A program made the translations under genes and the position numbers. A stretch of 64,000 nt of DNA from Lentisphaeria bacterium UBA4640 (GTDB lineage Bacteria; Verrucomicrobiota; Lentisphaeria; Victivallales; UBA1829): the NCBI GenBank assembly GCA_002405835.1, contig DHMO01000045.1, positions 34,062-98,061 on the forward strand. Reading direction: 5' to 3'. The notes below the pieces were generated by a model that worked only from the letters and a program-made list of their open reading frames with translations, searched no databases and was not told where the DNA came from. Shown in pieces: positions 796-44,967 of this stretch (position 1 is the first letter of the stretch; the number at the start of each line of letters is the position of its first letter).

Positions 796-3030
796 ATGGA
801 TGATCTGCTGTCTGCACAGGAAACACCGTTCGAACTGTCGCCGGAACCCGGCGGCGTGACTGAACAGACCCTGCGCGGCGAGGTTGAAAAGGTCCTCTAC
901 GAAAACGAGGAGACCTCCTATACCGTTGTGATCATCCGCGACGCTCTCGGCGAACTTCATAATGCGGTCGGCACGCTTCCCGGCGTCTCTGCTGGGCAGG
1001 GCATCGAGGCTGTCGGCCGCTGGGAAGTTCATAAGGAGTACGGACGCCAGTTCCGTGTACTTTCTTACAATTTCACTCTCCCCGTTACGGCAGAGGGAAT
1101 CATCAAATATCTCTCTTCCGGCGTGATCAAAGGACTCGGACGCAAGAATGCCGAGGCGATTGTCGCCGCATTCGGAGCCGCCACTCTGGATGTGATAGAA
1201 AATGCTCCGGCGCGCCTGCGCGAAGTTCCCGGAATCGGAAAAAAACGCATTGATGCAATCCGGCAGATCTGGAAGGAGAACGCTCAGCGGCGGACGCTCC
1301 AGATTCATCTTCAGAGCTACGGCGTCAGCCTTGCCTACTTCACAAAAATTTATCAGAAATACGGCGACGCCGCGGCGGAAAAAATCAAAGAGAATCCCTA
1401 TGCGCTTGCAACCGACATTCCCGGAATCGGGTTTGTCATGGCGGATCATATTGCGGAAAAAATGGGGATTCAGAAGAACGACCCGAAGCGTCTGACTTCC
1501 GGAATGACGTATGTCCTTTCCCAGATGCGCGGGCTCGGGCATATCTGTGTCCCGCGCGATCTCTTTCTTTCCAAAGCCTCCGAACTGCTCGGGATTGAGC
1601 CCGAAGATTCAGAGAAAGCGCTGACCCTTGCCGTCGGTCTGATGCTTGCGGCGATCCGCAAGGCTTCGGACGGAACCGAGATGGTTTACGAACCCGGACT
1701 GCTCCGATGCGAAGAGGAGTTCCCCGTCCGCATTGCGCGTCTCATGGCGGTTCCGCGCCACTATGGACAGAACATCATGCGTTTTCCTGTTCAGCCGAAC
1801 GCGATTTTCAGCGATGAACAGCTGAATGCGGTGAAAATGGTCGGCAACTCACCTGTCTCAATTATCACCGGCGGACCCGGCGTCGGCAAAACGACAGTTG
1901 TCGGGGAAATCGTCCGCCGTGCGAAACTTGCCAAGCTGACAATCGCACTCTGCGCTCCGACCGGACGCGCCGCGAAACGGATGTCCGAAACAACGCATGT
2001 CACGGCATTCACGATTCACCGTCTGCTGAAATGGGATCCGGCAAAACATCAGTTTGTGCATGGCCGTTCCTCGCCGCTGAAAGCGGAGCTGATCATCATT
2101 GATGAAACTTCGATGCTCGATATTCTGATTGCAACCGCTCTGTTCCGCGCGATCAACCCGGGAACAACAGTTGTGCTCGTCGGCGATGCGGATCAGCTGC
2201 CGTCAGTCGGTCCGGGAAATGTCCTGAACGACCTGATTTCATCCGGTTTTATTCCGGTTACACGTCTGACAAAGATTTTCCGCCAGGGCGCCGGAAGCGG
2301 CATCATCATGGCGGCGCACGATGTCAACAGCGGACGCATGCCGCCGATCTCCCGGACGCGCCGCAGTGCTCCTGTTACCGATTTCTACTGGATTGAAAAG
2401 GATGATCCGGACGAGGCCGCGGATGTGATCCGCCGTCTGGTTTGCGACCGCATCCCGAACCGCTTCGGACTGAATGCGATGAATGATATCCAGGTTCTTT
2501 CCCCGATGAACAAGGGCTCCTGCGGGACCATTGCGCTGAACACCGCACTTCAGGAACTGCTGAATCCTGAGGCAAAACTGCAGTTCCGCCACGGCGAACG
2601 GCTTTTCAAACTCGGTGACAAGGTCATGCAGATTTCCAACAACTACGACAAAGGTGTTTTCAACGGCGATATGGGGCGGATTTGCGCGATCAATTACAGC
2701 GATAAACAGTTCTCCGTCAAATTCGATTCGGAGAGCATCACCTATGAATTTCTCGAAGCCGATCAGCTTTCTCTTTCCTATGCCGTGACGATTCACAAGT
2801 CGCAGGGCAGCGAATTTCCCGCCGTGGTGATTCCGCTTCTGACTCAGCATTTTGTAATGCTTCAGCGCAATCTGCTTTACACCGGAATGACGCGCGCGAA
2901 ACGTCTGATGATTCTGGTCGGCTCGGAAAAAGCGGTCAGCATGGCTGTTCGCAACAGCGTTCGCGAGCCGCGCTATTCTCTTCTGAATGAACGGCTTGCG
3001 GACGCGTTCCGGACGGAGGGGTTCGGATGA
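796..3030 (+). CDS. recD2: RecD2-type SF1 ATP-dependent DNA helicase
   Basis: 744 aa. Walker A is GGPGVGKTT; other helicase motifs are CAPTGRAAKRM, IIDETSMLD, VLVGDADQLPSVGPGNVL, IHKSQGSEF and YTGMTRAKRLMILVG. An N-terminal HhH-like region is typical of RecD2. Confidence 0.9.
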   Translation: MDDLLSAQETPFELSPEPGGVTEQTLRGEVEKVLYENEETSYTVVIIRDALGELHNAVGTLPGVSAGQGIEAVGRWEVHKEYGRQFRVLSYNFTLPVTAEGIIKYLSSGVIKGLGRKNAEAIVAAFGAATLDVIENAPARLREVPGIGKKRIDAIRQIWKENAQRRTLQIHLQSYGVSLAYFTKIYQKYGDAAAEKIKENPYALATDIPGIGFVMADHIAEKMGIQKNDPKRLTSGMTYVLSQMRGLGHICVPRDLFLSKASELLGIEPEDSEKALTLAVGLMLAAIRKASDGTEMVYEPGLLRCEEEFPVRIARLMAVPRHYGQNIMRFPVQPNAIFSDEQLNAVKMVGNSPVSIITGGPGVGKTTVVGEIVRRAKLAKLTIALCAPTGRAAKRMSETTHVTAFTIHRLLKWDPAKHQFVHGRSSPLKAELIIIDETSMLDILIATALFRAINPGTTVVLVGDADQLPSVGPGNVLNDLISSGFIPVTRLTKIFRQGAGSGIIMAAHDVNSGRMPPISRTRRSAPVTDFYWIEKDDPDEAADVIRRLVCDRIPNRFGLNAMNDIQVLSPMNKGSCGTIALNTALQELLNPEAKLQFRHGERLFKLGDKVMQISNNYDKGVFNGDMGRICAINYSDKQFSVKFDSESITYEFLEADQLSLSYAVTIHKSQGSEFPAVVIPLLTQHFVMLQRNLLYTGMTRAKRLMILVGSEKAVSMAVRNSVREPRYSLLNERLADAFRTEGFG

Positions 3031-3887
3031 AAACCGTTCTGGAACCACCGCGCACCCGGGTTGAATTTGAGCTCCCCTTCCGTTTGAATCCGCATACGGC
3101 GGTTGTCTCCTCCGTCGGCTCCTGCTTTGCCGATGAGGTTGCCGGACAGCTTGCGGATGCCGGACTTGATGTCCTGCGCAATCCGAACGGCATTGTCTAC
3201 AACCCGGTTTCCCTTGCGGATTCGGTTCTCGGAAAAGACGCCGACTTGTTTGAATTCAACGGTTTGTGGCATTCGTGGAATCATCATGGCTCCTTCTCTT
3301 CCGTATCGCGCGGGGAGCTGGAACAGAAAATTGAAAGTGCGCGTTCCGCATTCCGGGAACATCTGCGGAAGAGCGATCTTCTGATTCTGACTCCGGCTTC
3401 GGCTGTCGTGTTTCAACTGATTGAAAATCAACAGATTGTGGCGAACTGTCACAAGGTTCCGGGAACCCGCTTCCAGCGCCGTCTGCTGACGTTTCAGGAA
3501 TGCTGCGCTGCGCTGAATTCCATTGCGGAATTCACTGCATCATTTGCTCCGGAATGCCGGATGGTGTTTACCCTTTCTCCCGTCCGCCACAATCCCGGTG
3601 ATCTGGTCCTGAATTCACGTTCCAAATCATTGGTGCTTAATGCGATACATGAGTGCTGCGGCCGTTTTGAAAACGCCTTTTACTTTCCCGCGTTCGAGAT
3701 AATGAATGATGAATTGCGGGATTACCGTTTTTACAAAGAAGACATGCTTCATCCGAATGCGCTTGCTGTGGATATCATCACCCGTTCGTTCGCCGCGGCC
3801 TGCTTCGGCGAAGAGGCTCAGAAGATGCTTGACACTGCCGCTCAGCGTATACGGCGGAGCCGTCATGTTCCGGGAGGACTGAACTGA
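3027..3887 (+). CDS. GSCFA-domain protein (function unknown, SGNH-like)
   Basis: 286 aa. The literal GSCFA motif (VGSCFADEV) lies near the N-terminus. The start overlaps the recD2 stop (ATGA). Confidence 0.75.
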   Translation: MKTVLEPPRTRVEFELPFRLNPHTAVVSSVGSCFADEVAGQLADAGLDVLRNPNGIVYNPVSLADSVLGKDADLFEFNGLWHSWNHHGSFSSVSRGELEQKIESARSAFREHLRKSDLLILTPASAVVFQLIENQQIVANCHKVPGTRFQRRLLTFQECCAALNSIAEFTASFAPECRMVFTLSPVRHNPGDLVLNSRSKSLVLNAIHECCGRFENAFYFPAFEIMNDELRDYRFYKEDMLHPNALAVDIITRSFAAACFGEEAQKMLDTAAQRIRRSRHVPGGLN

Positions 3888-28503: not shown

Positions 28504-28604
28504 GACGGAAATTTTTCATTTTTTTTTGTTTCAGAGAGTTTTTTTTTGAAATGTGTGCTATATTATGCCTGAATATGTAGATTTGCATCTAACATGGAGT
28601 AAAA

Positions 28605-30473
28605 ATGGAAACATTCAGAACGCAGACATGCGGCGGACTCAGAAAGTCCGATGTCGGACAGAAAGCGAAACTTGCAGGCTGGATTCACAGCGTGCGCGAC
28701 CACGGCGGCGTGATCTTCATTGATTTGCGCGACCACTACGGAAAGACCCAGATCGTGGTCAATCCGAAAATGGATTTCTATCAGGAACTGGAAAAATGGC
28801 GCGTGGAAACGGTCGTCTCCTTCACGGGAACGGTTGTTGCCAGAACGCCGGAAACGGTCAATCCGAAGCTCGCAACCGGCGAGATTGAACTTGTTGCGGA
28901 AGAAATGGAAGTTCTCGGCGAAACCGATCAGATTCCGTTCCAGGTTGCGAAGGATGAGCAGGCGCCCGAAGCGCTCCGTCTCGAATACCGCTTCCTTGAT
29001 CTGCGCCGCGATGAGCTGCACAACAACATTGTGCTCCGCTCCAAAGTCATTCAGACCATCCGCGAAAAAATGTGGGAAATGGGATTCAACGAGTATCAGA
29101 CTCCGATTCTTACGAGCAGCTCCCCCGAAGGCGCGCGCGATTACCTCGTTCCGAGCCGCGTTCACCCCGGAGAGTTCTATGCTCTTCCGCAGAGCCCCCA
29201 GCAGTTCAAGCAGCTGCTCATGGTCGCCGGATTCGACAAGTATTTCCAGGTTGCGCCCTGTTTCCGTGATGAGGACGCCCGCGCCGACCGCTCCCCCGGT
29301 GAGTTCTATCAGCTCGATATCGAGATGAGCTTTGCAACTCAGGAAGATGTCTTCAAGGTCTGTGAAGATCTGCTGATGGCCGTCTTCAACAAATATTCGA
29401 CGAAGAAAGTTACGCAGGCTCCGTTCCCGCGCATTCCGTTCCGCGAGGCGATGGAGAAATACGGTTCCGACAAGCCGGACCTCCGCAACCCGCTGTTCAT
29501 GATCGACCTTTCCGAATTCTTCCGCAACGCCGGATTCAAGGCGTTCGCTTCGACCGTCGCCAACGGCGGCGTGGTCAAAGGCATGCGCGTCCCGGGCGTA
29601 GTCGGCGTTCAGCCCCGTACCTTCTACGACAAGATGGAGGCTTTCGCGAAAGAGAACGGCGCAAAGGGTCTCGGTTACATCATGTGGACCAAAGAAGGCG
29701 AGATCAAAGGACCTATCGCGAAGTTCCTCAAGCCCGAAGAGCTGGTTGAGCTTGCGAAGATCGCGGAAATCGAAAACGGCGACGCTCTGTTCTTCATGTG
29801 CGACACCCGCGCGAAAGCCAACGAACTCGGCGGCAAGGTCCGCGCGAAGTTCGCGGAACGCCTGAACCTCATCGATCCGAACGTCTTCAACTTCTGCTGG
29901 ATCGTCGACTTCCCGTTCTTCGAGAAGGACGAAGAGACCGGCGCGATCATCTTCTCGCACAACCCCTTCTCCATGCCGCAGGGCGGAATGGATGCGCTGC
30001 TCAACAAACAGCCGCTCGACATTCTCGCGTATCAGTACGACATTGTCTGCAACGGCATCGAGCTCTCCTCCGGAGCGGTTCGAAACCACATGCCGGAACT
30101 GATGTACAAGGCGTTCGAAATGACCGGCTACAGCCGCGAAGTCGTGGACAGCAAGTTCGGCGGAATGATCAAGGCGTTCAAGCTCGGCGCGCCCCCGCAC
30201 GCGGGCGTGGCTCCCGGAATCGACCGCATGGTCATGCTGCTGACCGACTCCCCGAACATCCGCGAAGTCATTGCGTTCCCGTTCAACCAGCAGGCTCAGG
30301 ATCTGATGATGAACGCTCCTTCCGAAGTCGATATGAAACAGCTTCGCGAACTGCGCATTGTTCCTCTGCCGCATGAACTCAAGTACGAAGAAACGTACAA
30401 GAAGCTCATGGCTGACGCCGCCCGCATCCGCGCCGCGGAAGAGGCTGCGCAGCTTGCGGCGAAACCGGAATAA
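28605..30473 (+). CDS. aspS: Aspartate--tRNA ligase
   Basis: 622 aa with an OB-fold N-terminus ([19 protein letters not shown]), class II motif 2 ([19 protein letters not shown]) and motif 3 ([13 protein letters not shown]). Confidence 0.95.
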
Positions 30474-30487
30474 ACGAAAGGTTTCCA

Positions 30488-31114
30488 ATGCCCCGGAGAC
30501 ACAGCAGAAGGCATTCTCAGAAATCGCATACGCTGATCCTGATTCTGGTATCGGCGGCGGCGCTTTTCGCTGCCTTCGGGGCTTGGAAAATCACTTCGCT
30601 TATCCGGGAATACCAGGCTTCGAGGGATGCCTACGATGACATCATCCTCGAAACCTCGGAACGCTATGCCGTTGATCCGGCACTGGTCAAGGCCGTGATC
30701 TGGCGTGAAAGCCGCTTCCGTCCCTACGCCCGCGGAAAAGCGGGCGAGGTCGGTCTGATGCAGATCATGCCCGATCAGGCCGCCGTCGACTGGGCAAAGC
30801 GCTTCCGGGTTCCAGTCCCGAGCCGGGGCGCGCTCTTTGCTCCGCGTCTCAACATCGAAATCGGCACCTGGTATCTCGGCAACGCCATCCGCCGCTGGGC
30901 GGATTACAAGGACGGACTGGCGCTCGCCCTCTGTGAGTATAATGCGGGAATCAAGCGCGCGAACGCATGGAAACCGGTCGACAAAAACGGCGACGTCCGT
31001 GAGCGCATCACAATCTCATCCACTCTATCTTATGTCAATACGATATTAAGTCAATACGAAGACTATAAACTCGCCTGGCAGAAAAAACATTCACCGAAAA
31101 AGGATGCAAAATGA
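30488..31114 (+). CDS. Lytic transglycosylase (SLT domain), membrane-anchored
   Basis: It has an N-terminal TM segment and the SLT catalytic motif WRESRFRPYARGKAGEVGLMQIMP. Confidence 0.85.
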   Translation: MPRRHSRRHSQKSHTLILILVSAAALFAAFGAWKITSLIREYQASRDAYDDIILETSERYAVDPALVKAVIWRESRFRPYARGKAGEVGLMQIMPDQAAVDWAKRFRVPVPSRGALFAPRLNIEIGTWYLGNAIRRWADYKDGLALALCEYNAGIKRANAWKPVDKNGDVRERITISSTLSYVNTILSQYEDYKLAWQKKHSPKKDAK

Positions 31115-31806
31115 AACTTTTTTCTCTTCTGGCCTTCTCCGTTTTTTCCGCGCTTCCGCTTTTTGCGGCAGACGGACTCCGGATCACGTTCTCTCCGGAA
31201 ACATATTCCAAAAAGGCGAAGCTGCCGGAGAAATGGCATCTTCAGGGAAAGCTCTTCACTTCCAAACCGGACTATGAAATCGTTTTCGACAAAGAGCTGA
31301 ACACGAATGTCCTGCGTGTCACCACCGACAAGGCTTCCGGTGCAATTCTTTATGACATTACCGGCGTTCTGCAGAAGTATCCGGTCATGCGCTGGAAATG
31401 GCGCGTCGATGCGCTCCCGAAGGGGGCGGACGGGCGCAACCCGGATGTGGATGATCAGGCAATCTCCCTCTACGTCGGCGTGGGACGCATCTCCACCAAC
31501 AGCGTCTCCTACCGCTGGGACACCGAGACGCCGAAGCAGTCGCGCGGCAATGCCGCATACGGCGCAGGCATGGTGAAAGTCGACTGGCTGACTCTCCGCA
31601 ACAAGGAGGATCAGGTTGGCGTCTGGCATACCGATCAGGTGAATGCGGCGGAGGATCTGAAGCGCATCTGCGGCGGCACCCTGCCGGATCATGATGTGGC
31701 GCTGAGCATCTGCACGAACAGCCAGTACACCAAATCGCGCGTTCAGGCGGATGTCGCATGGATCGAATTCCTTCCGCTGGAGGCTCTGAAGGAGAAACCG
31801 GAATAA
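31111..31806 (+). CDS. Secreted DUF3047-like protein
   Basis: It has a signal peptide, and MRWKWRVDALPKGADGRNPDVDDQAISLYVG resembles the DUF3047 signature as I recall it. The start overlaps the previous stop (ATGA). Confidence 0.5.
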   Translation: MKLFSLLAFSVFSALPLFAADGLRITFSPETYSKKAKLPEKWHLQGKLFTSKPDYEIVFDKELNTNVLRVTTDKASGAILYDITGVLQKYPVMRWKWRVDALPKGADGRNPDVDDQAISLYVGVGRISTNSVSYRWDTETPKQSRGNAAYGAGMVKVDWLTLRNKEDQVGVWHTDQVNAAEDLKRICGGTLPDHDVALSICTNSQYTKSRVQADVAWIEFLPLEALKEKPE

Positions 31807-33827: not shown

Positions 33828-33904
33828 GATAAAGATAATTTAGCACAGGAAACTGTTTTGTCAATTTTTTGCATAAGGTTTGCACAACTTTCTTTCAAAA
33901 AAAG

Positions 33905-33933
33905 TTGCATTTCGTTTTTCCGTCTTCTATATT
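33905..33933 (+). promoter_or_regulatory. Candidate sigma70-type promoter of the GH3 gene
   Basis: The promoter reads TTGCAT - 17 nt - TATATT and lies about 25 nt upstream of the GH3 ATG. The inverted repeat CAACTTT-N9-AAAGTTG (33885-33907) overlaps the -35 element. Confidence 0.45.
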
Positions 33934-33957
33934 ATTCCAGAAAACGGAGGTTTTGCA

Positions 33958-36201
33958 ATGTTGCCTTATCAGAATAAAGAATTGAGTCCGGAAGAACGCA
34001 CACGCGATCTTCTTTCGCGTATGACCGTCGAAGAGAAAATCGGACAGCTTGTCAAACTTGACGGCTTCCGCTCCTATGAGCGTTCCGGTTCGGGATATCG
34101 CCTGAAGCCGGAATTTACCGACACGGTGGAAAAATGGCTGATCGGTTCCATGTACGGTCTTGTCCGCGCCGACTGGTGGACGGAGCGCGACTGGAACAGC
34201 GGCGTTCCGCCGGAGAAGATGAACGAGGTTGTCAACCTTTTTCAGAAATACATTCTTGACCATTCGCGTCTCGGCATTCCTCTTTACATCGCAGAGGAGG
34301 CTCCGCACGGGCTGATGGCGCTCGGCACGAGTGTTTTCCCGACCGGGCTCGGACTTGGCGCATCGTTCGACCGTGCCATGATGAACCGCGTCGGACACGT
34401 CATCGGTTCCGAAGCGCACGCCGCCGGCGTTCACTCGGTCTATGCTCCGATTCTGGATATCGTGCGTGAACCGCGCTGGTCCCGCGCGGAGGAGAATTAT
34501 TCTGAAGATCCCTATCTGACGTCGGTTTTCGGCGAGGAGATGGTGAAGGGAATCTCCGCGGAGGGAACCGTTGCGACGCTGAAGCATTTCGTTGCGCACG
34601 GAAGTCCGGAGGGCGGGCACAACCAGGCTCCGGCGCACGTGGGGCCGATAGAATTCCGCAACTGCCAGCTGCGCCCGTTCCGCAATGCGATCCGCGCAGG
34701 CGCGCTTTCGATCATGAGCGCCTACAGCGACGTGGACGGCGAGCCCAGCAGCGGCAGCCGTCACCTGCTGACTGATGTTCTGCGCGGCGAGCTCGGTTTC
34801 AAGGGCTTTGTCGTTGCCGACCGCGGAGCAATCGTACTTCTCAAAAGACACCGTCTTGCCGATGATGACGCCGAGGCTTCCGCCCGCGCACTGAAAGCCG
34901 GATGCGATGTGGATGAAGGTTTTCTGGAATTTCATACCGCCGGGCTGACCGAAGCGCTCCGCCGCGGTCTGATTGACGAAGGCGACCTGGATGTCTGTGC
35001 GGGACGCATTCTCTATACGAAGTTCGTCACAGGTCTCTTCGAGCATCCGTTTGCGCAGAGCCGTCCGGTTGAAATTCTCCGTTCGGCTGAGCATGAAGCA
35101 GTTGCACTGGAAGCCTCGCGCAAAGCGATGACTCTGCTGAAGAACAACGGAATCCTGCCGCTGAAAAACATCCGTTCTCTCGCGGTGATCGGACCGAATG
35201 CGGATAATATGATGAATCAGCTCGGTGATTATTCCGCTCCGCAGAAACGCGAATCGGTTGTTACGGTTCTGGACGGCATCCGCGCGGAAGCGGAAAAAGC
35301 CGGGATTTCTGTTTCGTATGCACGCGGCTGCGGCATCCGCAGTATGGATAAGAGCGGATTCGATGAAGCCGTTTCGCTCGCCGCGAATGCGGATGCGGCA
35401 GTTCTGGTTCTCGGCGGCTGCAGCACGAAGTACGGAACGGAAATGATCCGCACGGAAACCGGAGCAGCCGTTCCGGAAATTCTTTCTCCGGAAAAGAGCG
35501 AAAAAGAGAGCGGCGAGGGAACCGACCGCGCTACACTCACGCTCTCCGGAGTTCAGCTGGATCTGTTCCGTGCGGTGAAAGCCGCGGGCAAGCCGGTGAT
35601 TGTTGTTCTTGTGCAGGGACGTCCGCTTGAAGTCGGCGAGCTCCGTGCGGGGGCGGATGGTGTTCTGCTTGCGTGGTATCCCGGCATGTTCGGCGGCCGC
35701 GCGGTCGCCGAGGTGCTGTTCGGCAAGTACAACCCCGCCGGACGTCTCTCCGTTTCGATTCCGCGCTGTTCCGGACAGCTTCCTGTTTATTACAACTCCC
35801 TTTCGTGGCGTCCGGATTATGTGGATTGCCCCGCTTCGCCGGAGCTCCCGTTCGGTTTCGGGTTGAGCTATACAACCTTCACTTATTCCGATTTGAAAGT
35901 CGAGGGACGCACGGCGTCTGTGACGGTTGCGAACACCGGAAGCATGGACGGGGAAGAAGTCGTGCAGTTCTATCTGACCGACCTTGCAAGCCAGGTGCGC
36001 CGTCCGCTTCTGGAACTTTGCGGGTTCGAGCGTGTGTTCATTCCGGCCGGGGAAAAACGCACAGTCTCGGTTGAACTGACCGATGAGGTCCTCGGATACT
36101 ACAACGGAAAACTTGAGTTCGTCGTTGAGCCCGGACGTTTTGAGCTGCGGGCCGGCGGAAACTCCGTGGATCTGATTCAGACGGAATTCCGGCTTTCATG
36201 A
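33958..36201 (+). CDS. Glycoside hydrolase family 3 (beta-glucosidase/beta-xylosidase-like), no signal peptide
   Basis: The N-terminus is LSPEERTRDLLSRMTVEEKIGQL. The GH3 core follows (KHFVAHG, GFKGFVVADRG nucleophile region), with a C-terminal FnIII-like domain. ATG 33958 follows ACGGAGG. Confidence 0.9.
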   Translation: MLPYQNKELSPEERTRDLLSRMTVEEKIGQLVKLDGFRSYERSGSGYRLKPEFTDTVEKWLIGSMYGLVRADWWTERDWNSGVPPEKMNEVVNLFQKYILDHSRLGIPLYIAEEAPHGLMALGTSVFPTGLGLGASFDRAMMNRVGHVIGSEAHAAGVHSVYAPILDIVREPRWSRAEENYSEDPYLTSVFGEEMVKGISAEGTVATLKHFVAHGSPEGGHNQAPAHVGPIEFRNCQLRPFRNAIRAGALSIMSAYSDVDGEPSSGSRHLLTDVLRGELGFKGFVVADRGAIVLLKRHRLADDDAEASARALKAGCDVDEGFLEFHTAGLTEALRRGLIDEGDLDVCAGRILYTKFVTGLFEHPFAQSRPVEILRSAEHEAVALEASRKAMTLLKNNGILPLKNIRSLAVIGPNADNMMNQLGDYSAPQKRESVVTVLDGIRAEAEKAGISVSYARGCGIRSMDKSGFDEAVSLAANADAAVLVLGGCSTKYGTEMIRTETGAAVPEILSPEKSEKESGEGTDRATLTLSGVQLDLFRAVKAAGKPVIVVLVQGRPLEVGELRAGADGVLLAWYPGMFGGRAVAEVLFGKYNPAGRLSVSIPRCSGQLPVYYNSLSWRPDYVDCPASPELPFGFGLSYTTFTYSDLKVEGRTASVTVANTGSMDGEEVVQFYLTDLASQVRRPLLELCGFERVFIPAGEKRTVSVELTDEVLGYYNGKLEFVVEPGRFELRAGGNSVDLIQTEFRLS

Positions 36202-36226
36202 GATTGTGAGAGCAGCGGATTCAGCA

Positions 36227-36252
36227 GGGCGGAAGAGATTCCGCCCTTTTTT
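36227..36252 (+). terminator. Rho-independent terminator after the GH3 gene
   Basis: The stem is GGGCGGAA / TTCCGCCC with a 4-nt loop, followed by TTTTTT. Confidence 0.8.
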
Positions 36253-37006
36253 ATGCCATGATCATGCCGGCGAGCAGAAGCAGCGTTTCGGCGGAATAGC
36301 CGTAGAGGTCGAACATCCGTATTGTCGGCCGTCCGGTGCTGTGCAGGATGCTGTTCTTTTGAAGATGCGCGATTCCCTTTGCCAGCAGAAGCAGTACAAC
36401 CGCCGCCGCAAAACATTTGAGGTGAAATGAAAGCAGTCCGATGAGCAGGAGCGTCGCCGCAGTCAGGATAAACGGCTGGTTCGGATTCTCTTCAGGGGCG
36501 GGGAGCAGAGGATCAAAGTCGTCCGCCGCACAGGTGACAAGTTCCATTCGCACGAGGTATGCGCAGGTGAAAATGAAGAGCAGGGTCAGCGGAGAGTGTG
36601 CCGTGATGAATCCGATTGCAGTCGCCCGGATCAGGTACAGACTGGCGAGAATGAAAAACGGGGTCATTTCCTTTTTCCATTCCAGTTTCTGCGTGAATGC
36701 CTCAGCCATGCCGGTATTCTGTACACGGAGTGTCAGATAGGCGGAAAGCGTTTTGAGTCCGCGCCAGTTTGTCGCGAGCTCCAGCGCGAGTGTCAGCGCC
36801 AGGGCCATGAGAAGCGCGGCGGCCAGTTCACCGAAGAAAAGGCGCGCGAATCCTGCGGCCAGAGCGGAGATTAATCCGACAGCTGCGCCGGCGAGCGGGA
36901 AAAGTTCCGCCCGAGGTTCCGCATCTTCCGATTGAAGTTTCAGCGAGAAAAAAACGTTCCAGGTCGCGGCGAACTGATCGCGGAGTTCCCTGTTCAGATT
37001 CATCAT
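36251..37006 (-). CDS. Polytopic membrane protein, weakly CobS-like, third gene of the aminolipid operon
   Basis: 251 aa with multiple hydrophobic helices. FPLAGAAVGLISAL and the C-terminus YGYSAETLLLLAG loosely recall CobS. The start overlaps the upstream stop (ATGA). Confidence 0.6.
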   Translation of the reverse strand: MMNLNRELRDQFAATWNVFFSLKLQSEDAEPRAELFPLAGAAVGLISALAAGFARLFFGELAAALLMALALTLALELATNWRGLKTLSAYLTLRVQNTGMAEAFTQKLEWKKEMTPFFILASLYLIRATAIGFITAHSPLTLLFIFTCAYLVRMELVTCAADDFDPLLPAPEENPNQPFILTAATLLLIGLLSFHLKCFAAAVVLLLLAKGIAHLQKNSILHSTGRPTIRMFDLYGYSAETLLLLAGMIMA

Positions 37007-37776
37007 GATGCAGCCTCGATTCCTGTATGTTTGCGGTATGCGTCGAGCATGAGTGCGCGCACCTGTTCCGCCAGCTGTTTGCGGTCGCCGCCGGTTTCCG
37101 GATGAACGAGCGGTTCCGGATAGACGTCCACATCAATTTCCCGCAGACCGAGCAGCTGCCAGACGTGCGGGAGCAGAGTCTGGTCGCCGAACCATGCGGG
37201 ATTCATTCCGCCGCAGGGAACATGGTAGACGGTGATGATCGGAAGCAGCGGTTTCCGGTCGGCGATGACCGCTTCGAACGGCGTCGATTTGAATGGAAGG
37301 AGCCCGTGAAGCCCATCGGTCGTGGTTCCTTCCGGATAGACGATCAGGGGGACTCCGAGTTCGAGTGTATGTTCAAATTCCTTGAGTGTTGCGAGGGATT
37401 TTGCGGGAGATTTTCGGTCGATCCAGACCGGCTGGGAGAGCCCGATGTAAGAGCCGAAAAAGAACCAGTCGCGGATTTCTTTCTTCGGCGCGAAGCGGAC
37501 GCCGGTCAGTGAGGCGTGCACGAGAATATCCACATAACTCTGATGATTGGAGACGAGCAGAATTCCTTTTTCCTCCGGCATGGTTCCGTGAATGCTGACG
37601 CGGATATTGAGGATGCGGAGAATTCCGCGCGCCCATTCTCCGGCGAGCTGTGCGCCTAGAGCGATTTTTTCCTCGCGCGTTTTCCCGATGAAGCGGAGTA
37701 CGGTTTTGAGCTGCATCCACGGGAACCAGATCAGCAGACGGAGAATGCGGGAGATTTTGCGGAAGAAGCTCAGCAT
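37003..37776 (-). CDS. Lysophospholipid/lyso-aminolipid acyltransferase (PlsC/OlsA-like)
   Basis: It has the NHQSYVD (HX4D) and YPEGTTT acyltransferase motifs. The start was chosen at MLSFFRK (ATG 37776); the long Arg-rich N-terminal extension overlaps the upstream gene. Confidence 0.8.
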   Translation of the reverse strand: MLSFFRKISRILRLLIWFPWMQLKTVLRFIGKTREEKIALGAQLAGEWARGILRILNIRVSIHGTMPEEKGILLVSNHQSYVDILVHASLTGVRFAPKKEIRDWFFFGSYIGLSQPVWIDRKSPAKSLATLKEFEHTLELGVPLIVYPEGTTTDGLHGLLPFKSTPFEAVIADRKPLLPIITVYHVPCGGMNPAWFGDQTLLPHVWQLLGLREIDVDVYPEPLVHPETGGDRKQLAEQVRALMLDAYRKHTGIEAAS

Positions 37777-38612
37777 GTCGCGCACGTCTTTTCCGCAGGA
37801 ACCGAGAGTTCCACATTGAAATGTCTGGTGTAGCGTTCCGGCAGCTTTGCCACGTCGAGAACGATGAAGAAGTCGATGGTTCCGAACAGCGGATCGAAGA
37901 GCGGTTCTCCGCAGATTTTCGCTCCTAGCCGGAGGTATCCTTTGAAGAGCGGGGGGATGAGCGAACGGACGGAGACCACGTTTTTCGCCGCTTCCTCCAT
38001 TTCCTCTGCGGAGGGACGCCGCATGGCATATCCCGGCTGCGGAGTTGCGTGAATGGAATCGGAGAGATTGCCGAGTTTGACGAGATGATCGTAAATCATC
38101 CAGCCGTGCGCGGGATTGGTTGTTTCGAGGCTGACGCATCCGAGAAGATAGCGTTGTCTGCTCCGGTGAATGAGTTCCGAAATTCCGCTCCAGAGGAGCG
38201 CCACGACGGTTCCGTTTCTGGATTCGGGAGCCACACAGGTGCGTCCGACTTCGATTGCGAGCGGAGTGATCGGTTCGAGTCCTTCGATATGGAATTCCTG
38301 TTCGGAATAGAATCCGAGTCTGGAGTGTGCCGCGATTGCGCCGAAATGAATGCGGTAGGTTCCGACGATTTCCCCGTTGTCCTTCCGGACAACGATGAGA
38401 TGGAGACAACTGTCGTCGAATTCATCTTTGTCAATCCCGTCGCGCAGATCTTTGAGTCCTTTTCCCTGTTCGAGGTTGAAGACGCGGTAACGCAGGCGGA
38501 AGACGGCTTCCAGTTCTTCACCGGAGAGAGCGAATTTTATGAGATACTGATCTTTTTCCGCGATAACGGGCGGATCTGCGACGAGTTTTCTGAATTCTTC
38601 CAGACTGTTCAT
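37770..38612 (-). CDS. GNAT-type N-acyl amino acid synthase (OlsB/GlsB-like)
   Basis: 280 aa. FRLRYRVFNLEQGKG...HLIVV...GEIVGTYR...EVGRTCV has the pattern of the OlsB/hemolysin-like Acetyltransf_5 family. It lies directly upstream of the PlsC-like gene. Confidence 0.75.
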   Translation of the reverse strand: MNSLEEFRKLVADPPVIAEKDQYLIKFALSGEELEAVFRLRYRVFNLEQGKGLKDLRDGIDKDEFDDSCLHLIVVRKDNGEIVGTYRIHFGAIAAHSRLGFYSEQEFHIEGLEPITPLAIEVGRTCVAPESRNGTVVALLWSGISELIHRSRQRYLLGCVSLETTNPAHGWMIYDHLVKLGNLSDSIHATPQPGYAMRRPSAEEMEEAAKNVVSVRSLIPPLFKGYLRLGAKICGEPLFDPLFGTIDFFIVLDVAKLPERYTRHFNVELSVPAEKTCATC

Positions 38613-38818
38613 TTTTGACTCTCCCCATGCCTTGTTCCTGGATTTTCAATATTTTCGTTACTATAAACGTTTTTCGGAAAAACTCAAATTGATTTTGTTC
38701 GTTTTCCGTTAAAGTTTTTTATGTTTTCCTCAATTCTTTCATTTTTTCCTGATTCGCGGTTGATTTTTCCTTTTGAACGGCTATCTTGCCTTATCAGCAA
38801 ATGAAAGGAACTGACGCC

Positions 38819-39520
38819 ATGAACGAATGGATTACGGACTTGCTCGCGCTTCAGGATCTCGATATGAAGATCCGCAATCTCAAACTCAGAATCGATACAA
38901 TTCCGGCAGAAAAGAAACGTCTGAATTCACTCGTCAAAGATGCCATGGACGACGTTGAGGTCGCCAAGGACGGCTTGCGCAGAATCGAGCGCAGCATCAG
39001 GGATCAGGAAGGCGAAGCGGAAAAACTCAACGAGGCTTCCCGGAAACTTCTCACGCAGTCGGCGATGGTCAAGAAAAACAACGAATATCAGGCGATGATG
39101 GCGGATATCGAGGCGAAGAAGAAGGCGATTTCCGATATTGAAACAAAAATTCTCGAACTGCTGGATCAGGCCGAAGAACAGCAGAAAAACGTTGCGGCGG
39201 CGGAGAAAGAGCTTGCTGTGACTCAGAAAACCGTCAAAGCGGAAATGACGGATCTCGTCGAGCTCAAACAGGAGCTTGAAGAGGATATTTCGGAAAAACT
39301 CAAACTCCGCAAAGCGTATGAATCCAAAGTTGATACGCAGACCCTCAACGTCTATCATCGCCTGCTTGAGGGCGGAAAAGGCGAGCCGGTCGCGATGATC
39401 AACCAGGGCGTTTGCGGCTACTGCCGTCTCCGCGTCCCGCCGCAGACGGTCAACAATGCCAAGAAGGGAATTCTGACACTCTGCGACAACTGTTCGCATA
39501 TTCTTTATCTGCACAGCTGA
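38819..39520 (+). CDS. Coiled-coil protein with a C-terminal C4 zinc ribbon (COG1579-like)
   Basis: A long coiled coil is followed by CGYC...CDNC. ATG 38819 lies 8 nt after AAAGGAA; ATG 38801 is an alternative. Confidence 0.75.
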   Translation: MNEWITDLLALQDLDMKIRNLKLRIDTIPAEKKRLNSLVKDAMDDVEVAKDGLRRIERSIRDQEGEAEKLNEASRKLLTQSAMVKKNNEYQAMMADIEAKKKAISDIETKILELLDQAEEQQKNVAAAEKELAVTQKTVKAEMTDLVELKQELEEDISEKLKLRKAYESKVDTQTLNVYHRLLEGGKGEPVAMINQGVCGYCRLRVPPQTVNNAKKGILTLCDNCSHILYLHS

Positions 39521-39665
39521 CGATTTGCGGAAAAGTCATGCGCTAAATTGACTGTTTTATGAAGAATCTCAACTGTTCGACTTGCAACTTGTAAACCAGT
39601 CGGTATTGTATCTGATGAATAAAAACGTTCTCAGATGCAAACCGAATTAAAAAAGGAGTACGGTT

Positions 39666-41489
39666 ATGGCAGTGAAAACTCAGAAGAAAACAGTCAAGGC
39701 TGCGCAGACGGCCGGACCGGTGATCAAGGTTGCCGAGCACCCGAAAGTCGGGATTCGTCCCACGATTGACGGCAGAAGAAAAGGGATTCGCGAGTCGCTC
39801 GAAGAACAGACCATGCAGATGGCGCGTTCGGCGGCTGAACTCATCAGCTCCACACTTCGTCATCCGGACGGCGCTCCGGTCGAATGTGTCATTGCGGACA
39901 CCACGATCGGCGGTGTTGCGGAAGCGGCCGCATGTGCGGACAAATTCCGCCGCGAAAACGTCGGAGTTTCCCTGACCGTGACGCCCTGCTGGTGCTACGG
40001 CTCCGAAACCATGGATATGGATCCGCAGACCCCGAAAGCGATCTGGGGCTTCAACGGAACGGAGCGTCCCGGTGCGGTTTATCTCGCCGCAGTTCTCGCC
40101 GCTCATTCTCAGAAAGGCATTCCCGCATTCGGCATCTATGGACGCGATGTGCAGGAGAAGGACGTCAAGGAGATTCCGGAAGACGTCAAGGAAAAAATCC
40201 TCCGCTTTGTGCGCGCCGGACTCGCGGTTGCCAATATGCGCGGCAAGAGCTACCTCTCCATGGGCAGTGTCGCCATGGGTATCGCGGGTTCCATTGTGAA
40301 CCCCGATTTCTTTGAAAAATATCTCGGAATGCGCTGCGAATCGGTTGATCAGTGCGAAATCATCCGCCGCGTTCAGGAGAATATCTATGATCCGGAAGAG
40401 TACAAGCGCGCGATTGACTGGATCAAGAAAAACTGCAAGGAAAACAAGGACATCTACAACGGCAAAGCCGGAAAATCCCGCAAAGAACAGAACGAAATCT
40501 GGGAATTCCTCGCCAAGATGACCATTATCGGCCGTGACCTCATGGTCGGCAACGAAAAGCTCGCGGAAATGGGCTTTGTGGAAGAATCCTGCGGACACAA
40601 CGCCATCGCCGGCGGCTTCCAGGGACAGCGCCAGTGGACGGATTTCATGCCCAACGGCGACTTCATGGAAACGATCCTCAACTCCTCCTTCGACTGGAAC
40701 GGCATCCGCAAGCCGTTCGTTCTCGCAACGGAAAACGACGCCTGCAACGGCGTTGCGATGCTGTTCGCCCACCTGCTGACCTGCACAGCCTCCGGATTCT
40801 CCGACGTCCGCACCTACTGGAGCCCGGAAGCGATCAAAAAGGCAACCGGCAAGAAGGTCAATGTCCCCGGTCTGATTCACCTCATCAATTCCGGCGCGAC
40901 CACGATGGACGCCACCGGCAAGCAGCGCAAAGACGGCAAGCCCGCGATGAAGCCCTTCTGGGAAATCACCGAGAAGGAGGCGAAAGCCTGTGTGGATTCT
41001 GTTGAGTGGACGCCCGCAAACCTCGGTTACTTCCGCGGCGGCGGATTCTCCAGCCGTTTCCTCACGGAAGGCGGAATGCCGCTTACGATGATCCGTCTGA
41101 ACATAGTCGCGGGACTCGGTCCGGTTCTTCAGATTGCGGAAGGCGAGACCGCTGTTCTTCCGAAAGATGTTCATGACAAACTTGACCAGCGTACCGATCC
41201 GGGCTGGCCGACCACCTGGTTCATCCCGAGACTCGATGAAACGAATCCGGCGTTCAAGGATGTCTACAGCGTCATGGCGCACTGGGGAGCAAACCACGGC
41301 GCGTTCTGCTACGGTCACATCGGCGCGGATCTGATCACGCTTGCTTCGATGCTTCGCATTCCGGTCTGCATGCACAACGTTCCCGAGGACAAGATTTTCC
41401 GTCCGTCCGCATGGAACTCTTTCGGCACGAAGGATCTTGAGGGAGCGGATTTCCGCGCCTGCAAGAACTTCGGTCCGGTTTACAAGTGA
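39666..41489 (+). CDS. fucI: L-fucose isomerase
   Basis: 607 aa. [27 protein letters not shown]...[16 protein letters not shown] is colinear with E. coli FucI ([26 protein letters not shown]...[16 protein letters not shown]). Confidence 0.95.
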
Positions 41490-41615: not shown

Positions 41616-42671
41616 CTAGTTTTTAATGGCGTCGTTTTTTTCGAGGAGAAAGAGCTGCCAGAAGAATTGGCGGACCGGGTGCGATGGAGTGTCGATCGTG
41701 ACAAAGGCGCTTCCGCCGGGAGTAAGTGTTCGTGTCGGCGGATTCAAAATCCGGATCTGAACGGGGAAACGCTGCGGAAGAAGAAACCATTCGTTTTCCT
41801 TTTCCACCTGCGGAAGTCCCGTGGAGGCGGATACGCGGCGTTCTGCACTCCAGCCGGTCTCCTCGACAACGCCCTCCAGTTCCAGTCCCGGGTACTGCCA
41901 GAGCCAGATTCTGGCATGCTGACCGCGGCGGATGCCGGAGAGTTCGTTCTCCTTGAAGTTCGCCTGAACCCACCATACGGAAGAATCAACAAAACCGAAC
42001 AGGACTTCGCCGGGTTCGTAATATCCGCCCGGAGAGAGCGTCATGTTGGTTACAAAACCGTCGCTGAGCGCCCGGACTACCGTCAGCCCCTGGTTGATTT
42101 TGGCCGTTTCCAACTGAGTTTCCAGATTCCGGATGAGCGCCCGCGCCGACTCCGCGTCGTGAGTCAGGGCTCGAAGTGTGCTCCGGGCGGAGTCCAGCTG
42201 TGCTTCGGCGGCTTCACGGGTATAGCGCTGACCGACGGCATATTCCTGTGAGACTGCAGCTCCGCTGTACATCTGATCTGCGGCATTGGAGAGGTAAACA
42301 GCATTTTTTTTCAGCGCTTCGAGCCGCCGGACATCGGCGCGCCCCGCGTCAATCCGGGCTTCCGTTGCAAGGAGAGCCGCCTTCTGCGATTCAAGTTGAT
42401 ATTCCAGTTCCTTCACTTTCAGCTGATAGGGTGCCTGAAAGATTGTAAAGAGCGGATCGCCCTTCTTTACAAACTGATTGTTGCGGACATGGATTTCCGT
42501 AATGTATCCGGCGACCAGTGCGGAAACGGGACGGGTGTTTGCAATTACAAATGCATTCTGAGTGAACGGCTGAAGATGCCAGTAGAAGTAGTAGGCCGTT
42601 GCGGCGGCGAGAATGGAACACGTCGCGATCATCAGCAGGTAGTGGCGGATCCAGTTGAAGAATTTTTTCAT
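41616..42671 (-). CDS. HlyD-family membrane fusion protein (AaeA-like)
   Basis: It has an N-terminal TM segment, a lipoyl-like hairpin (GYITEIHVRNNQFVKKGDPLFTI), a coiled coil and a beta-barrel domain. Confidence 0.85.
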   Translation of the reverse strand: MKKFFNWIRHYLLMIATCSILAAATAYYFYWHLQPFTQNAFVIANTRPVSALVAGYITEIHVRNNQFVKKGDPLFTIFQAPYQLKVKELEYQLESQKAALLATEARIDAGRADVRRLEALKKNAVYLSNAADQMYSGAAVSQEYAVGQRYTREAAEAQLDSARSTLRALTHDAESARALIRNLETQLETAKINQGLTVVRALSDGFVTNMTLSPGGYYEPGEVLFGFVDSSVWWVQANFKENELSGIRRGQHARIWLWQYPGLELEGVVEETGWSAERRVSASTGLPQVEKENEWFLLPQRFPVQIRILNPPTRTLTPGGSAFVTIDTPSHPVRQFFWQLFLLEKNDAIKN

Positions 42672-43663
42672 GCGGCCTCCTTGTTCTCCGTGCGGCTGTC
42701 CGGAAGAAAGAAATGTTCATAAAGCATCATGATCAAAATCCCGATGACGCTGGCGAGACTGCGCGAACAGAGCATCTGCATGAAGTTCATCGTGCCGCCA
42801 TCGCCTGTTGCAATATCCGCGTAAATCGCAAAAGTCATCAGAAAAATGACCGTGAAGGCAAAGTAGCTTCCCGTATAGTAGAGCAGGAAAAATCCGAAAC
42901 CGCAGATCAGGGGGATAAGATATGTCATGCGGCAGTCGAAATAGGCGAAACAGGCAAGATAGAGTCCGCAGAAGAGCAGTCCCAGCGGTGTGGAGAAAAT
43001 ACGGGTGCGGGCAATTTCGATGGCGTCGCGTCCGGAGTTGACTCCGTTGTAAATCATCGCCATGCTGAACACAATCCAGAGTCCCTGCGGAAAATGAAGA
43101 GCGCGCATCAGGTAGATGCCGAGTCCGTACATGACGGCAATGCGGAGCGCCTGAGTTTTCGTATATGCTCCGGGAAGTTCAAATTCCCATTTGTTCTGAT
43201 AGTGAATAAGCCCGATTGCCGAGGTTGCGAGCATGACCGCCGCTCCGGTGAACATCAGATCGAAAATCCTGCTTGCGGAGGCGTGAAAATTCGGCGGGGC
43301 GGCAAGTCCGATAGTTCCGATCAGAAGAGCCGTCGAAGCGGTGACCTTGCTTCGTATCATGCTGAGCATGAAAAAGATATAGAGTCCAGGAATCAGAACC
43401 TGCAAAAACTTTTCCGGTTCACAGATCCCCAGCAGAAACTGAAGCATTCCGGCATTGAAAAGAGTCTTCAGAGTTACCCGCAGACGGCTTTCGCAGGAGC
43501 GGATGTCGTAGAGCTGTCCGGTGAGGAGAAATGCTCCGCTTACAAGCATGAGGTTGCTGTGCGGCAGATGGAAGAAAATCCAGAAAAAGGCCGCACAGCC
43601 GCCCGCTGTTGTCAGCACAAGTGCGTGATTTACGGAACGGATAAGTTCTCTGTGTTCTGCCAT
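42668..43663 (-). CDS. FUSC/aromatic acid exporter-like membrane protein (AaeB-like, short form)
   Basis: 331 aa and polytopic. It is translationally coupled (ATGA) to the HlyD gene, as in aaeAB-type pairs. Confidence 0.55.
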   Translation of the reverse strand: MAEHRELIRSVNHALVLTTAGGCAAFFWIFFHLPHSNLMLVSGAFLLTGQLYDIRSCESRLRVTLKTLFNAGMLQFLLGICEPEKFLQVLIPGLYIFFMLSMIRSKVTASTALLIGTIGLAAPPNFHASASRIFDLMFTGAAVMLATSAIGLIHYQNKWEFELPGAYTKTQALRIAVMYGLGIYLMRALHFPQGLWIVFSMAMIYNGVNSGRDAIEIARTRIFSTPLGLLFCGLYLACFAYFDCRMTYLIPLICGFGFFLLYYTGSYFAFTVIFLMTFAIYADIATGDGGTMNFMQMLCSRSLASVIGILIMMLYEHFFLPDSRTENKEAA

Positions 43664-43683: not shown

Positions 43684-44967
43684 TCAGGACCGCATGATGC
43701 GCAGTTCCGGTGTGGCGCCGCTGTCGGTGCGCAGATAAAGAGTCTGGGTCTTGTAGGCAAAATTCAGCTTTTCTTCAGCGAAACGTTTGAGAATTGCCAT
43801 GAAAAGTTCGGTCCGCCAAGTCTCTTCCTGTGCAAAAGATTCCGTTTTGAGCCAGAGGATGACCGTGATGTTCAAAGCGGAATCGGCGAGCTTTGAAAAA
43901 AAGATCCGCGGGGAATATCCGGGACGGTCGGTGCCGTGAAAGTTGTCGGTGATTTCATGGAGAATCTGGATCGCGCGCGTCATCTGTTCCGGCGTGGTGT
44001 CGCAGGTCATGCCGAGATCAAACATCAGTTTGAGATGATTCTTCAGATTGATGTTGCGGACCGGACTGGTGGTGAGCAGACTGTTCGGAAGTGTGTAGAC
44101 GGATTCATCATCGGCGATGATTTTTGTGCTGCGCATTCCGACTTCACAGACAACTCCCTCGATGCCGCCGGTCTGAATGCGGTCGCCGAGTTTGAACGGG
44201 CGGTCGAACAGAATGACGATCGTTCCGAAAAAGTTGGAGAGCGTATCTTTTGCGGCGAGCGCGGCGCCGAGCCCGAGCACACCCGCGCCGGCAAGCAGAG
44301 CGGTGATGTTGATCTTGAAAATGCTCTGTCCGATAAACAGAATCGTCGTGGCAAAAACGAGAATCCGCATGATGTCGCGAAGCACTTTGACCATGAGATC
44401 GTCAAGGTTGTTGTCTTCTCTCTGCGCAAAGTTCCGCAGATGACGGTCGATTACTCCGACGAGGTTCAGTGCCGCCCATGCCGTGATCATGGTGAGTACG
44501 GTGAAGAAAAAGCGGATGTCATACAAAAAAACGGTTCGTTCGAAGCTCGCGAGGATCGGGCAGAAGGAGACGAAGAGGGCGGTTACACCGAGTCCGAGGA
44601 AGAACGGCGCATTGAGTGCGGCGAGCACTTCACGGAGCAGCGGATGACGCGGAGTTTCTTTCTGTTTTCGCAGAAGGCGTCCGCTCACATATCCTCCAAG
44701 CGCAATGACGGCGACGGCAGCAAATGCGGTCAGCAGAGATTTGAGCAGAGTATCACCTTGTGCGGAGAACCAGCGGTTGACGGTTTTTTCCTTCTGAAAG
44801 AAAAAATGTTCCAGCTGATCGGGTGAAAGATCCGCCGGATTGATTCCTTCCGGAACTTTTGCATTCAGCCATTCCGTGCGCTGTCGTTCCAGATTTTTTT
44901 GTTCATTTTCCGCGAATCCGCCCGGCGCGGCAAGCGCCAGCAGGAGTATGAAGATGATAATACGCAT
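43684..44967 (-). CDS. MscS-family mechanosensitive channel
   Basis: It has a signal/TM N-terminus and an MscS beta-domain motif (FKLGDRIQTGGIEGVVCEVGMRSTKI...D...YTLPNS). Confidence 0.85.
   Translation of the reverse strand: MRIIIFILLLALAAPGGFAENEQKNLERQRTEWLNAKVPEGINPADLSPDQLEHFFFQKEKTVNRWFSAQGDTLLKSLLTAFAAVAVIALGGYVSGRLLRKQKETPRHPLLREVLAALNAPFFLGLGVTALFVSFCPILASFERTVFLYDIRFFFTVLTMITAWAALNLVGVIDRHLRNFAQREDNNLDDLMVKVLRDIMRILVFATTILFIGQSIFKINITALLAGAGVLGLGAALAAKDTLSNFFGTIVILFDRPFKLGDRIQTGGIEGVVCEVGMRSTKIIADDESVYTLPNSLLTTSPVRNINLKNHLKLMFDLGMTCDTTPEQMTRAIQILHEITDNFHGTDRPGYSPRIFFSKLADSALNITVILWLKTESFAQEETWRTELFMAILKRFAEEKLNFAYKTQTLYLRTDSGATPELRIMRS

Follow-up and report, generated by a model that had tools for sequence, protein, structure and literature searches.

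Acyloxyacyl aminolipids are made by a two-step route in which an OlsB-type enzyme acts first and an OlsA-type enzyme second (PMC12971839). A 2026 review lists OlsBA, OlsF, and OlsHI as the routes of synthesis and OlsC, OlsD, OlsE, OlsG, and an unidentified taurine transferase as modifiers, names no accessory membrane protein, CobS-like or otherwise, and no transporter or flippase, and for Lentisphaerales reports OlsF, not OlsB, at its thresholds (PMC12971839). CobS itself belongs to cobalamin synthesis; the D82A variant of the Salmonella enzyme is enzymatically inactive, and cells that overproduce CobS lose their proton motive force whether or not the protein is catalytically active (PMC8749415). 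Here, we describe an OlsB/OlsA-type gene pair in the gut-dwelling Lentisphaeria bacterium UBA4640 (contig DHMO01000045.1) joined to a third gene, the product of which is a remote CobS homolog without the CobS Asp box. The window, that is, the whole stretch of DNA analyzed, comprises 64,000 nucleotides (nt) with a G+C content of about 55%. Full-text literature searches on CobS together with aminolipids, and on Victivallis together with ornithine lipid, found nothing relevant.

Operon structure and linkage of the third gene to olsA

Three consecutive open reading frames (ORFs) on the minus strand follow each other in the order olsB-like, olsA-like, and CobS-like. They encode a GNAT-type N-acyltransferase of 280 amino acids (aa), the predicted lyso-aminolipid synthase (37770 to 38612), a PlsC-type O-acyltransferase of 257 aa with its ATG at 37776 (37003 to 37776), and a polytopic membrane protein of the CobS superfamily of 251 aa, a proposed accessory subunit (36251 to 37006). 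The DNA reads ATGCTGA where the olsB stop and the olsA start overlap by 7 nt, and ATGA at 37006 to 37003 where the olsA stop meets the third-gene start; 7 nt 5' of the third-gene ATG, there is a Shine-Dalgarno-like element, GAGG. An earlier reading of this DNA (the original prediction) had named these ORFs, their positions, and both overlaps, all of which agreed with the ORF list and the DNA, and the motifs it had quoted from the third protein (FPLAGAAVGL, NWRGLKTLSAY, and YGYSAETLLLLAG) were all found there. The three-gene operon is real.

More than 25 distinct loci of other organisms, with differing flanking genes, show this gene order as well, so the arrangement is not a product of chance. 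When the neighborhoods of ten family members with 22 to 58% identity were looked up, an OlsA homolog was immediately upstream of the third gene in eight, the exceptions being L008 and L009/L010. A GNAT gene preceded the OlsA homolog wherever the contig reached, except in L012, where a PlsC-type gene stood only. In the reverse approach, a metagenome scan with the OlsA alignment gave 80 loci, which were scored with custom hidden Markov models. In the close OlsA clade, defined by a score of at least 230 bits, 18 of the 21 loci with enough sequence to judge had the third gene directly downstream, whereas none of the more than 50 loci of distant OlsA homologs (115 to 166 bits), many with olsB upstream, contained it. 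The third gene is conserved next to olsB/olsA pairs; a lack of such conservation would have refuted the original prediction. The third gene was absent from the close olsBA pairs L021, L034, and L038, and also from the close relatives L097, a complete 3.88-Mb genome, and L098, an Omnitrophica-labelled metagenome-assembled genome (MAG). What looked like divergent third genes in L021 and L034 turned out to be a shadow ORF and an unrelated soluble protein.

Of 26 distinct loci, 17 have an overlap between the olsA stop and the start of the third gene, and 6 more have a gap of 30 nt or less. Across 16 loci, the pairwise identities of the third protein correlated with those of OlsA (r = 0.96), and those of olsA with olsB (0.85). 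The mean identity was 28% for the third protein, 47% for OlsA, and 52% for OlsB, the third protein thus diverging fastest. Judged by gene order and overlaps, the third gene is co-inherited with olsA and translationally coupled to it. A conserved fourth gene was sought and rejected, as the downstream genes vary (DUF815 ATPase, PMT_2, UvrB, T2SSE, and a GntR-type regulator). The two closest genomes, found by a narrow-alignment locus search, are the human-gut MAGs UMGS1182 and UMGS1153, and those records of the third protein or its OlsA partners that carry a name come from Lentisphaerae/Lentisphaeria MAGs, with the exception of the Omnitrophica-labelled one, which has no third gene.

Homology of the third protein to CobS and loss of its catalytic residues

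The third protein alone had no Pfam or NCBIfam match at E ≤ 1 and no PHROGs match at E ≤ 10. A word-indexed search found 10 near relatives, the sole named one from a Lentisphaeria MAG, and a further search of this type found 18 homologous proteins. Searching 1.84 billion cluster representatives with a profile extended the family to 70 relatives of 240 to 283 aa, 30 of them at E ≤ 1e-10. The CobS family PF02654 was weakly matched by 26 of the 53 aligned members (best 6.4e-12), the family profile retrieved genuine CobS proteins bearing the GLHLDGLADxxDG and GGxTGDxxGAxxExxE motifs (7.6e-12), and hhalign aligned the family with three genuine CobS proteins over the full length (239 columns, probability 98%, E 2e-13). 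The likeness to CobS, noticed by eye in the original prediction, is accordingly a real, remote homology, and these profile comparisons place the third protein among the descendants of the cobalamin 5'-phosphate synthase CobS. Kinship with the CDP-alcohol phosphatidyltransferases (PF01066) was rejected, as there was no Pfam match at E ≤ 1 and no D-G-x2-A-R...D-x3-D motif.

Compared with orthologs at 91%, 88%, and 58% protein identity, the third gene showed ratios of nonsynonymous to synonymous substitution rates (dN/dS) of 0.15, 0.17, and 0.23; in the same orthologous loci the ratio was 0.06 to 0.13 for olsA and 0.10 to 0.18 for olsB. The third gene is a real gene under purifying selection. With the 53-sequence alignment, AlphaFold2 returned an all-helical model of 10 helices with a predicted local distance difference test score (pLDDT) of 96.6 and a predicted template modeling score of 0.92, compared to a pLDDT of 41 with a shallow alignment of 7 sequences.

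The residues H80, D82, D86, and D89 of CobS align with G83, K85, A89, and T92 of the third protein. Likewise, D226 and E233 have given way to R230 and Y237, with only E236 of CobS kept as E240. The Asp box H-x-D-G-x-A-D-x-x-D was absent from all 53 family members examined, including the position of D82, and at its place the family consensus reads LE..T..RGL....SF...R..G. The lack of the Asp-rich segment, first noted for this one protein, is thus a property of the whole family. The C-terminal motif G-G-x-T-G-D...E..E is not present either, its last Glu alone being retained. With the Asp box and the G-D...E motif lost, phosphodiester chemistry of the CobS type is impossible for the third protein, as far as can be told from the aligned residues.

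What the family retains is the N-terminal W..LP, the FP..G...G motif (P37, G40, and G44), and G236. Three charged positions only are conserved, each in at least 99% of 71 sequences: E/D76, R/K127, and E/D240. Two of them are inherited from CobS, the basic residue 127 in mid-membrane on helix 3 corresponding to K124 and the acidic residue 240 on the last helix to E236. Position 76, occupied by E or D throughout the 71 sequences, is an acidic residue gained relative to CobS.

These data bear on whether the third protein might after all be a genuine divergent cobalamin (cobamide) synthase, or else an unrelated protein lying downstream by chance, both of which we consider very improbable. A genuine CobS would agree with the weak PF02654 matches in half of the family and with the name "cobalamin synthase" given to one member by JGI/IMG, but the third protein itself does not match PF02654 even at E ≤ 1, none of the 53 members has an Asp at the essential D82 position or retains the other Asp residues, and cobalamin genes were seen in no neighborhood examined. 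Among the annotated neighbors in the window (about 30.5 to 45 kb) there was no cobT, cobU, cobC, cbiB, or other cobalamin gene, the gene lists of 12 related neighborhoods contained no cobalamin genes, and the window held no genuine CobS ORF. A genuine CobS in a cobalamin context, one of the findings that the original prediction had named as refuting it, was thus not encountered. A chance neighbor would not be expected to keep its coupling to olsA across differing flanks. On the residues and the gene context, the third protein is not a cobalamin synthase. Family members are otherwise annotated as "hypothetical protein"; the member named "cobalamin synthase" by its source (P0041, a JGI/IMG record) belongs to the family without the Asp box, and its label is probably a misannotation.

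Acyltransferases and the predicted lipid

The olsB-like protein matched Acetyltransf_5 (PF13444, 6e-28) in Pfam, with a weak match to FeeM (1.5e-5). Its top NCBIfam match was OlsB (NF052555, 2.7e-38); the OlsB models gave 132 and 111 bits against cut-offs of 320 and 350, OlsF gave 65 bits, and the GlsB equivalog model gave 25.9 bits and did not reach its cut-off of 300. The olsA-like protein matched Acyltransferase (PF01553, 3.3e-18), and its top NCBIfam matches were two OlsA equivalogs with 112 and 91 bits (best 2.6e-32), the higher score against a cut-off of 300, so that the equivalog level was reached by neither protein. The OlsA motifs HX4D (NHQSYVD) and EGT (YPEGTT) were invariant across the alignment of relatives. 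The assignment to an OlsB/OlsA-type pair made in the original prediction agrees with these Pfam matches and with OlsB and OlsA as the best, though sub-cut-off, NCBIfam models; by domain and motif content, the first two genes encode acyltransferases of the OlsB/OlsA type in which the motifs are intact.

By the established two-step logic, the OlsB-like enzyme would attach a 3-hydroxy fatty acid to the nitrogen of an amino acid, and the OlsA-like enzyme would then O-acylate the 3-hydroxyl of the N-acyl chain to give an acyloxyacyl amino lipid. The most probable head group is ornithine or lysine. Ornithine was detected in whole-cell hydrolysates of two cultured Lentisphaerae, where it possibly came from aminolipids (PMC5148204). 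In L011, genes for an Aminotran_3 (ArgD-like) protein and ornithine carbamoyltransferase (1545 to 3677, plus strand) are located directly 3' of the CobS-like gene. The hydrolysate ornithine and, weakly, this neighborhood hint indirectly at an ornithine head group.

Possible role of the third protein

The role that we think most likely for the third protein, at about even odds, is that of a lipid-handling or lipid-translocating membrane partner of OlsA without catalysis of its own. The original prediction had suggested a repurposed transferase or a flippase and a possibly new lipid product; the loss of nearly all conserved polar residues of CobS favors a non-catalytic partner over a transferase. 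The missing Asp box, the three conserved charged positions, and the faster evolution together make a phosphotransferase or multi-substrate enzyme unlikely. The small number of polar residues conserved among the 71 sequences was likewise counted as a hint of an accessory role, with which the dispensability of the gene in some close relatives (L021, L034, L038, L097, and L098) is loosely consistent.

The helical scaffold of CobS, retained after the catalytic residues had gone, would in this proposal have become a stoichiometric membrane partner of OlsA. By the positive-inside rule, the segment that replaces the Asp box (residues 79 to 114, with six Lys/Arg) would be cytoplasmic, and the cytoplasmic face would be the side where the acyl-acyl carrier protein-dependent OlsB and OlsA act. 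The remnant of the CobS cavity on this face may bind the lyso-lipid or the product by its polar head group. The third protein would then most likely help the lipid across or out of the inner membrane; translocation as such we rate at well under even odds. The effect of CobS on the proton motive force suggests, by analogy, that the fold can contain a membrane-spanning polar path. The pairing would follow a logic like that of synthase and flippase in MprF.

Two family members lie away from olsBA. In L008 (34 to 615, plus strand), the detached member is located 3' of a gene for a PqiC-like ABC_trans_aux lipoprotein. This neighbor, which scored 25.5 bits against a cut-off of 26, hints faintly at a role in lipid traffic. 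In L009 (6808 to 7851, plus strand) and L010 (1051 to 2130, plus strand), the member precedes a T2SSE-type ATPase gene.

These detached members also bear on the possibility, which we rate as unlikely, that the third protein is a mere membrane anchor, assembly factor, or stabilizer for OlsA (and OlsB) and moves no lipid. Translational coupling, co-inheritance with olsA, and the loss of the CobS catalytic residues would all suit an anchor, and the fusion of both acyltransferase activities in OlsF (PMC12971839) indicates that joining the two steps is advantageous. On the other hand, family members at a distance from olsBA pairs are not what an anchor predicts, and OlsA has a hydrophobic N-terminal helix of its own, which is unchanged in relatives without the partner.

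Equally improbable to us is an active transferase of the CobS fold, rebuilt around E76, R/K127, and E240, that modifies the head group or the acyl part of the aminolipid. The near-complete conservation of the acidic positions 76 and 240 and the basic position 127 and the tight operon coupling to a biosynthetic enzyme speak for it, and a known gene is still missing for several aminolipid modifications, among them taurine transfer, the addition of serine in flavolipin, and the FL-phosphatidic acid conjugate (PMC12971839). However, R/K127 and E240 come from CobS (K124 and E236) and hence do not form a new site, and all residues of the metal/diphosphate-type Asp box are lost. Three conserved charged positions combined with faster evolution (28% versus 47% and 52%) are atypical for an enzyme, and no His-box, S-adenosylmethionine or ATP motif, and no Pfam match was found in the third protein.

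Several points weigh against a non-catalytic lipid-handling partner of OlsA. The invariant E76 could form a new active site with R/K127 and E240. A Foldseek comparison of the model with the PDB found no similar structure, and the fold consequently gives no functional lead. The mirror-tree correlation may reflect shared descent alone, and no feature was found that distinguishes OlsA proteins with the partner from those without it. The restriction to Lentisphaerota rests on few named records, and because both acyltransferases score far under the NCBIfam equivalog cut-offs, any head group is putative.

Other features of the locus and neighboring genes

A consensus scan found a sigma-70-like promoter match (TTGAGT-16-TATAGT, 38660 to 38687, minus strand) 48 nt 5' of the olsB-like ATG at 38612, within an AT-rich intergenic region of 173 nt that is shared with the divergent gene at 38786 to 39520. 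Between the end of the operon and the convergent GH3 gene (33880 to 36201), a G+C-rich hairpin with 9 pairs in its stem, 6 of them G-C, is located at 36226 to 36247. A T-run follows on the plus strand only, with no U-tract on the minus strand of the operon; the hairpin resembles a terminator for the GH3 gene and may also stop the operon. Rfam and tRNA scans over the window found no RNA element. Three long ORFs of this G+C-rich genome are shadow ORFs and not genes, namely, 28563 to 30488 (minus strand, 641 aa) opposite the aspartyl-tRNA synthetase (AspRS) gene, 39543 to 41375 (minus strand, 610 aa) antisense to fucose isomerase, and 37003 to 38409 (minus strand), a TTG extension of olsA through olsB with 468 aa.

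In other organisms, including some without the CobS-like gene, the olsB/olsA pair of this clade repeatedly has a DUF3047 (PF11249) gene as its immediate upstream neighbor; such genes were located in the window (31111 to 31806, plus strand) and in L098 (4517 to 5167), L034 (2365 to 3180), L004 (2894 to 3664), and L030 (245 to 970). The order in Lentisphaerae GWF2_52_8 is AspRS-SLT-DUF3047-(219 aa)-olsB-olsA-cobS-like. In the window, AspRS (28605 to 30473), SLT (30488 to 31114), and DUF3047 are about 5 kb from the operon and point the other way, an arrangement that suggests an ancestral synteny since rearranged. The DUF3047 protein is a possible further partner of the aminolipid pathway.

In two distant relatives, a gene for a Na/Pi-cotransporter-PhoU fusion is divergently upstream of the operon (L007, 242 to 2695, and L012, 2632 to 5091, both minus strand), hinting that the aminolipid genes are tied to phosphate supply, as in other bacteria. 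Some relatives have genes for envelope sugars directly downstream: a PMT_2 (ArnT-like GT-C) glycosyltransferase gene lies 3' of the CobS-like gene in L016 (4617 to 6323), L018 (5576 to 7312), and L019 (1747 to 3483), and FdtA and DegT sugar-aminotransferase genes lie 3' of olsBA in L097 (6788 to 8392), the genome without the third gene. Elsewhere in the window, a polytopic membrane protein of 331 aa without a Pfam match (42668 to 43663, minus strand) overlaps by 4 nt with an HlyD-type membrane-fusion gene (41616 to 42671, minus strand), downstream of an MscS-type channel gene (43684 to 44967). The two overlapping genes are possibly an uncharacterized efflux pair.

Significance and comparison with known systems

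Ornithine lipids and other aminolipids have immunological activity and protect against stress, and a conserved olsA-coupled gene in Lentisphaerota of the gut, rumen, and digesters is a concrete candidate for an accessory component. OlsB/OlsA-type genes are documented here in a phylum for which the review reports OlsF and not OlsB. The label "cobalamin synthase" is an annotation hazard that could wrongly credit gut Lentisphaerota with B12 synthesis. As a tentative proposal, somewhat short of even odds, the CobS fold was recruited either to be the first component dedicated to the handling or translocation of phosphorus-free amino lipids, such as a flippase or exporter subunit acting with OlsA, or as a rebuilt enzyme giving a new Lentisphaerota lipid. 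Whether partner or rebuilt enzyme, it would be a third, previously unknown component of aminolipid biogenesis, and it would exemplify the conversion of an enzyme of the B12 pathway into a pseudoenzyme of a lipid pathway.

MprF is an aminoacyl-phosphatidylglycerol synthase fused to a flippase domain, a single protein that acts on phospholipids. The likeness to the present operon is a functional analogy only, in that a synthase of amino acid-containing lipids comes with a genetically linked polytopic membrane module for handling what it makes. In contrast to the two-part arrangement here, MprF is one fused protein, no kinship of sequence or fold is expected, and flipping by the third protein would be an extrapolation from the analogy.

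CobS (adenosylcobinamide-GDP ribazoletransferase, PF02654, EC 2.7.8.26) is likewise a polytopic helical protein of about 250 aa, remotely homologous over the full length, and shares the N-terminal LP motif, FP..G...G, the basic residue in helix 3, and the C-terminal Glu followed by LLL.G. Unlike CobS, the third protein lacks H80, D82, D86, D89, D226, and E233, carries the new acidic residue 76, and is encoded next to aminolipid acyltransferases instead of cobalamin genes.

OlsF and GlsB/GlsA have the two-step acyloxyacyl aminolipid chemistry in common with the operon. OlsF is a single fused protein compared to two genes here and matched with 65 bits only, GlsB matched with 26 bits only, and neither OlsF nor GlsB/GlsA has a CobS-like partner. 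The closest system is OlsB/OlsA of the Sinorhizobium meliloti type (PMC12971839), which has the same succession of a PF13444 gene and a PF01553 gene and the same HX4D and EGT motifs, intact here. It differs from the present operon in that the scores here are far below the cut-offs (132 versus 320 and 112 versus 300) and in the coupled, conserved third gene, a component not described for the known aminolipid pathways (PMC12971839). The locus is best described as a known two-enzyme aminolipid operon to which an uncharacterized, lineage-restricted component derived from CobS has been added, a member of a small family of about 70 clusters with a narrow taxonomic range.

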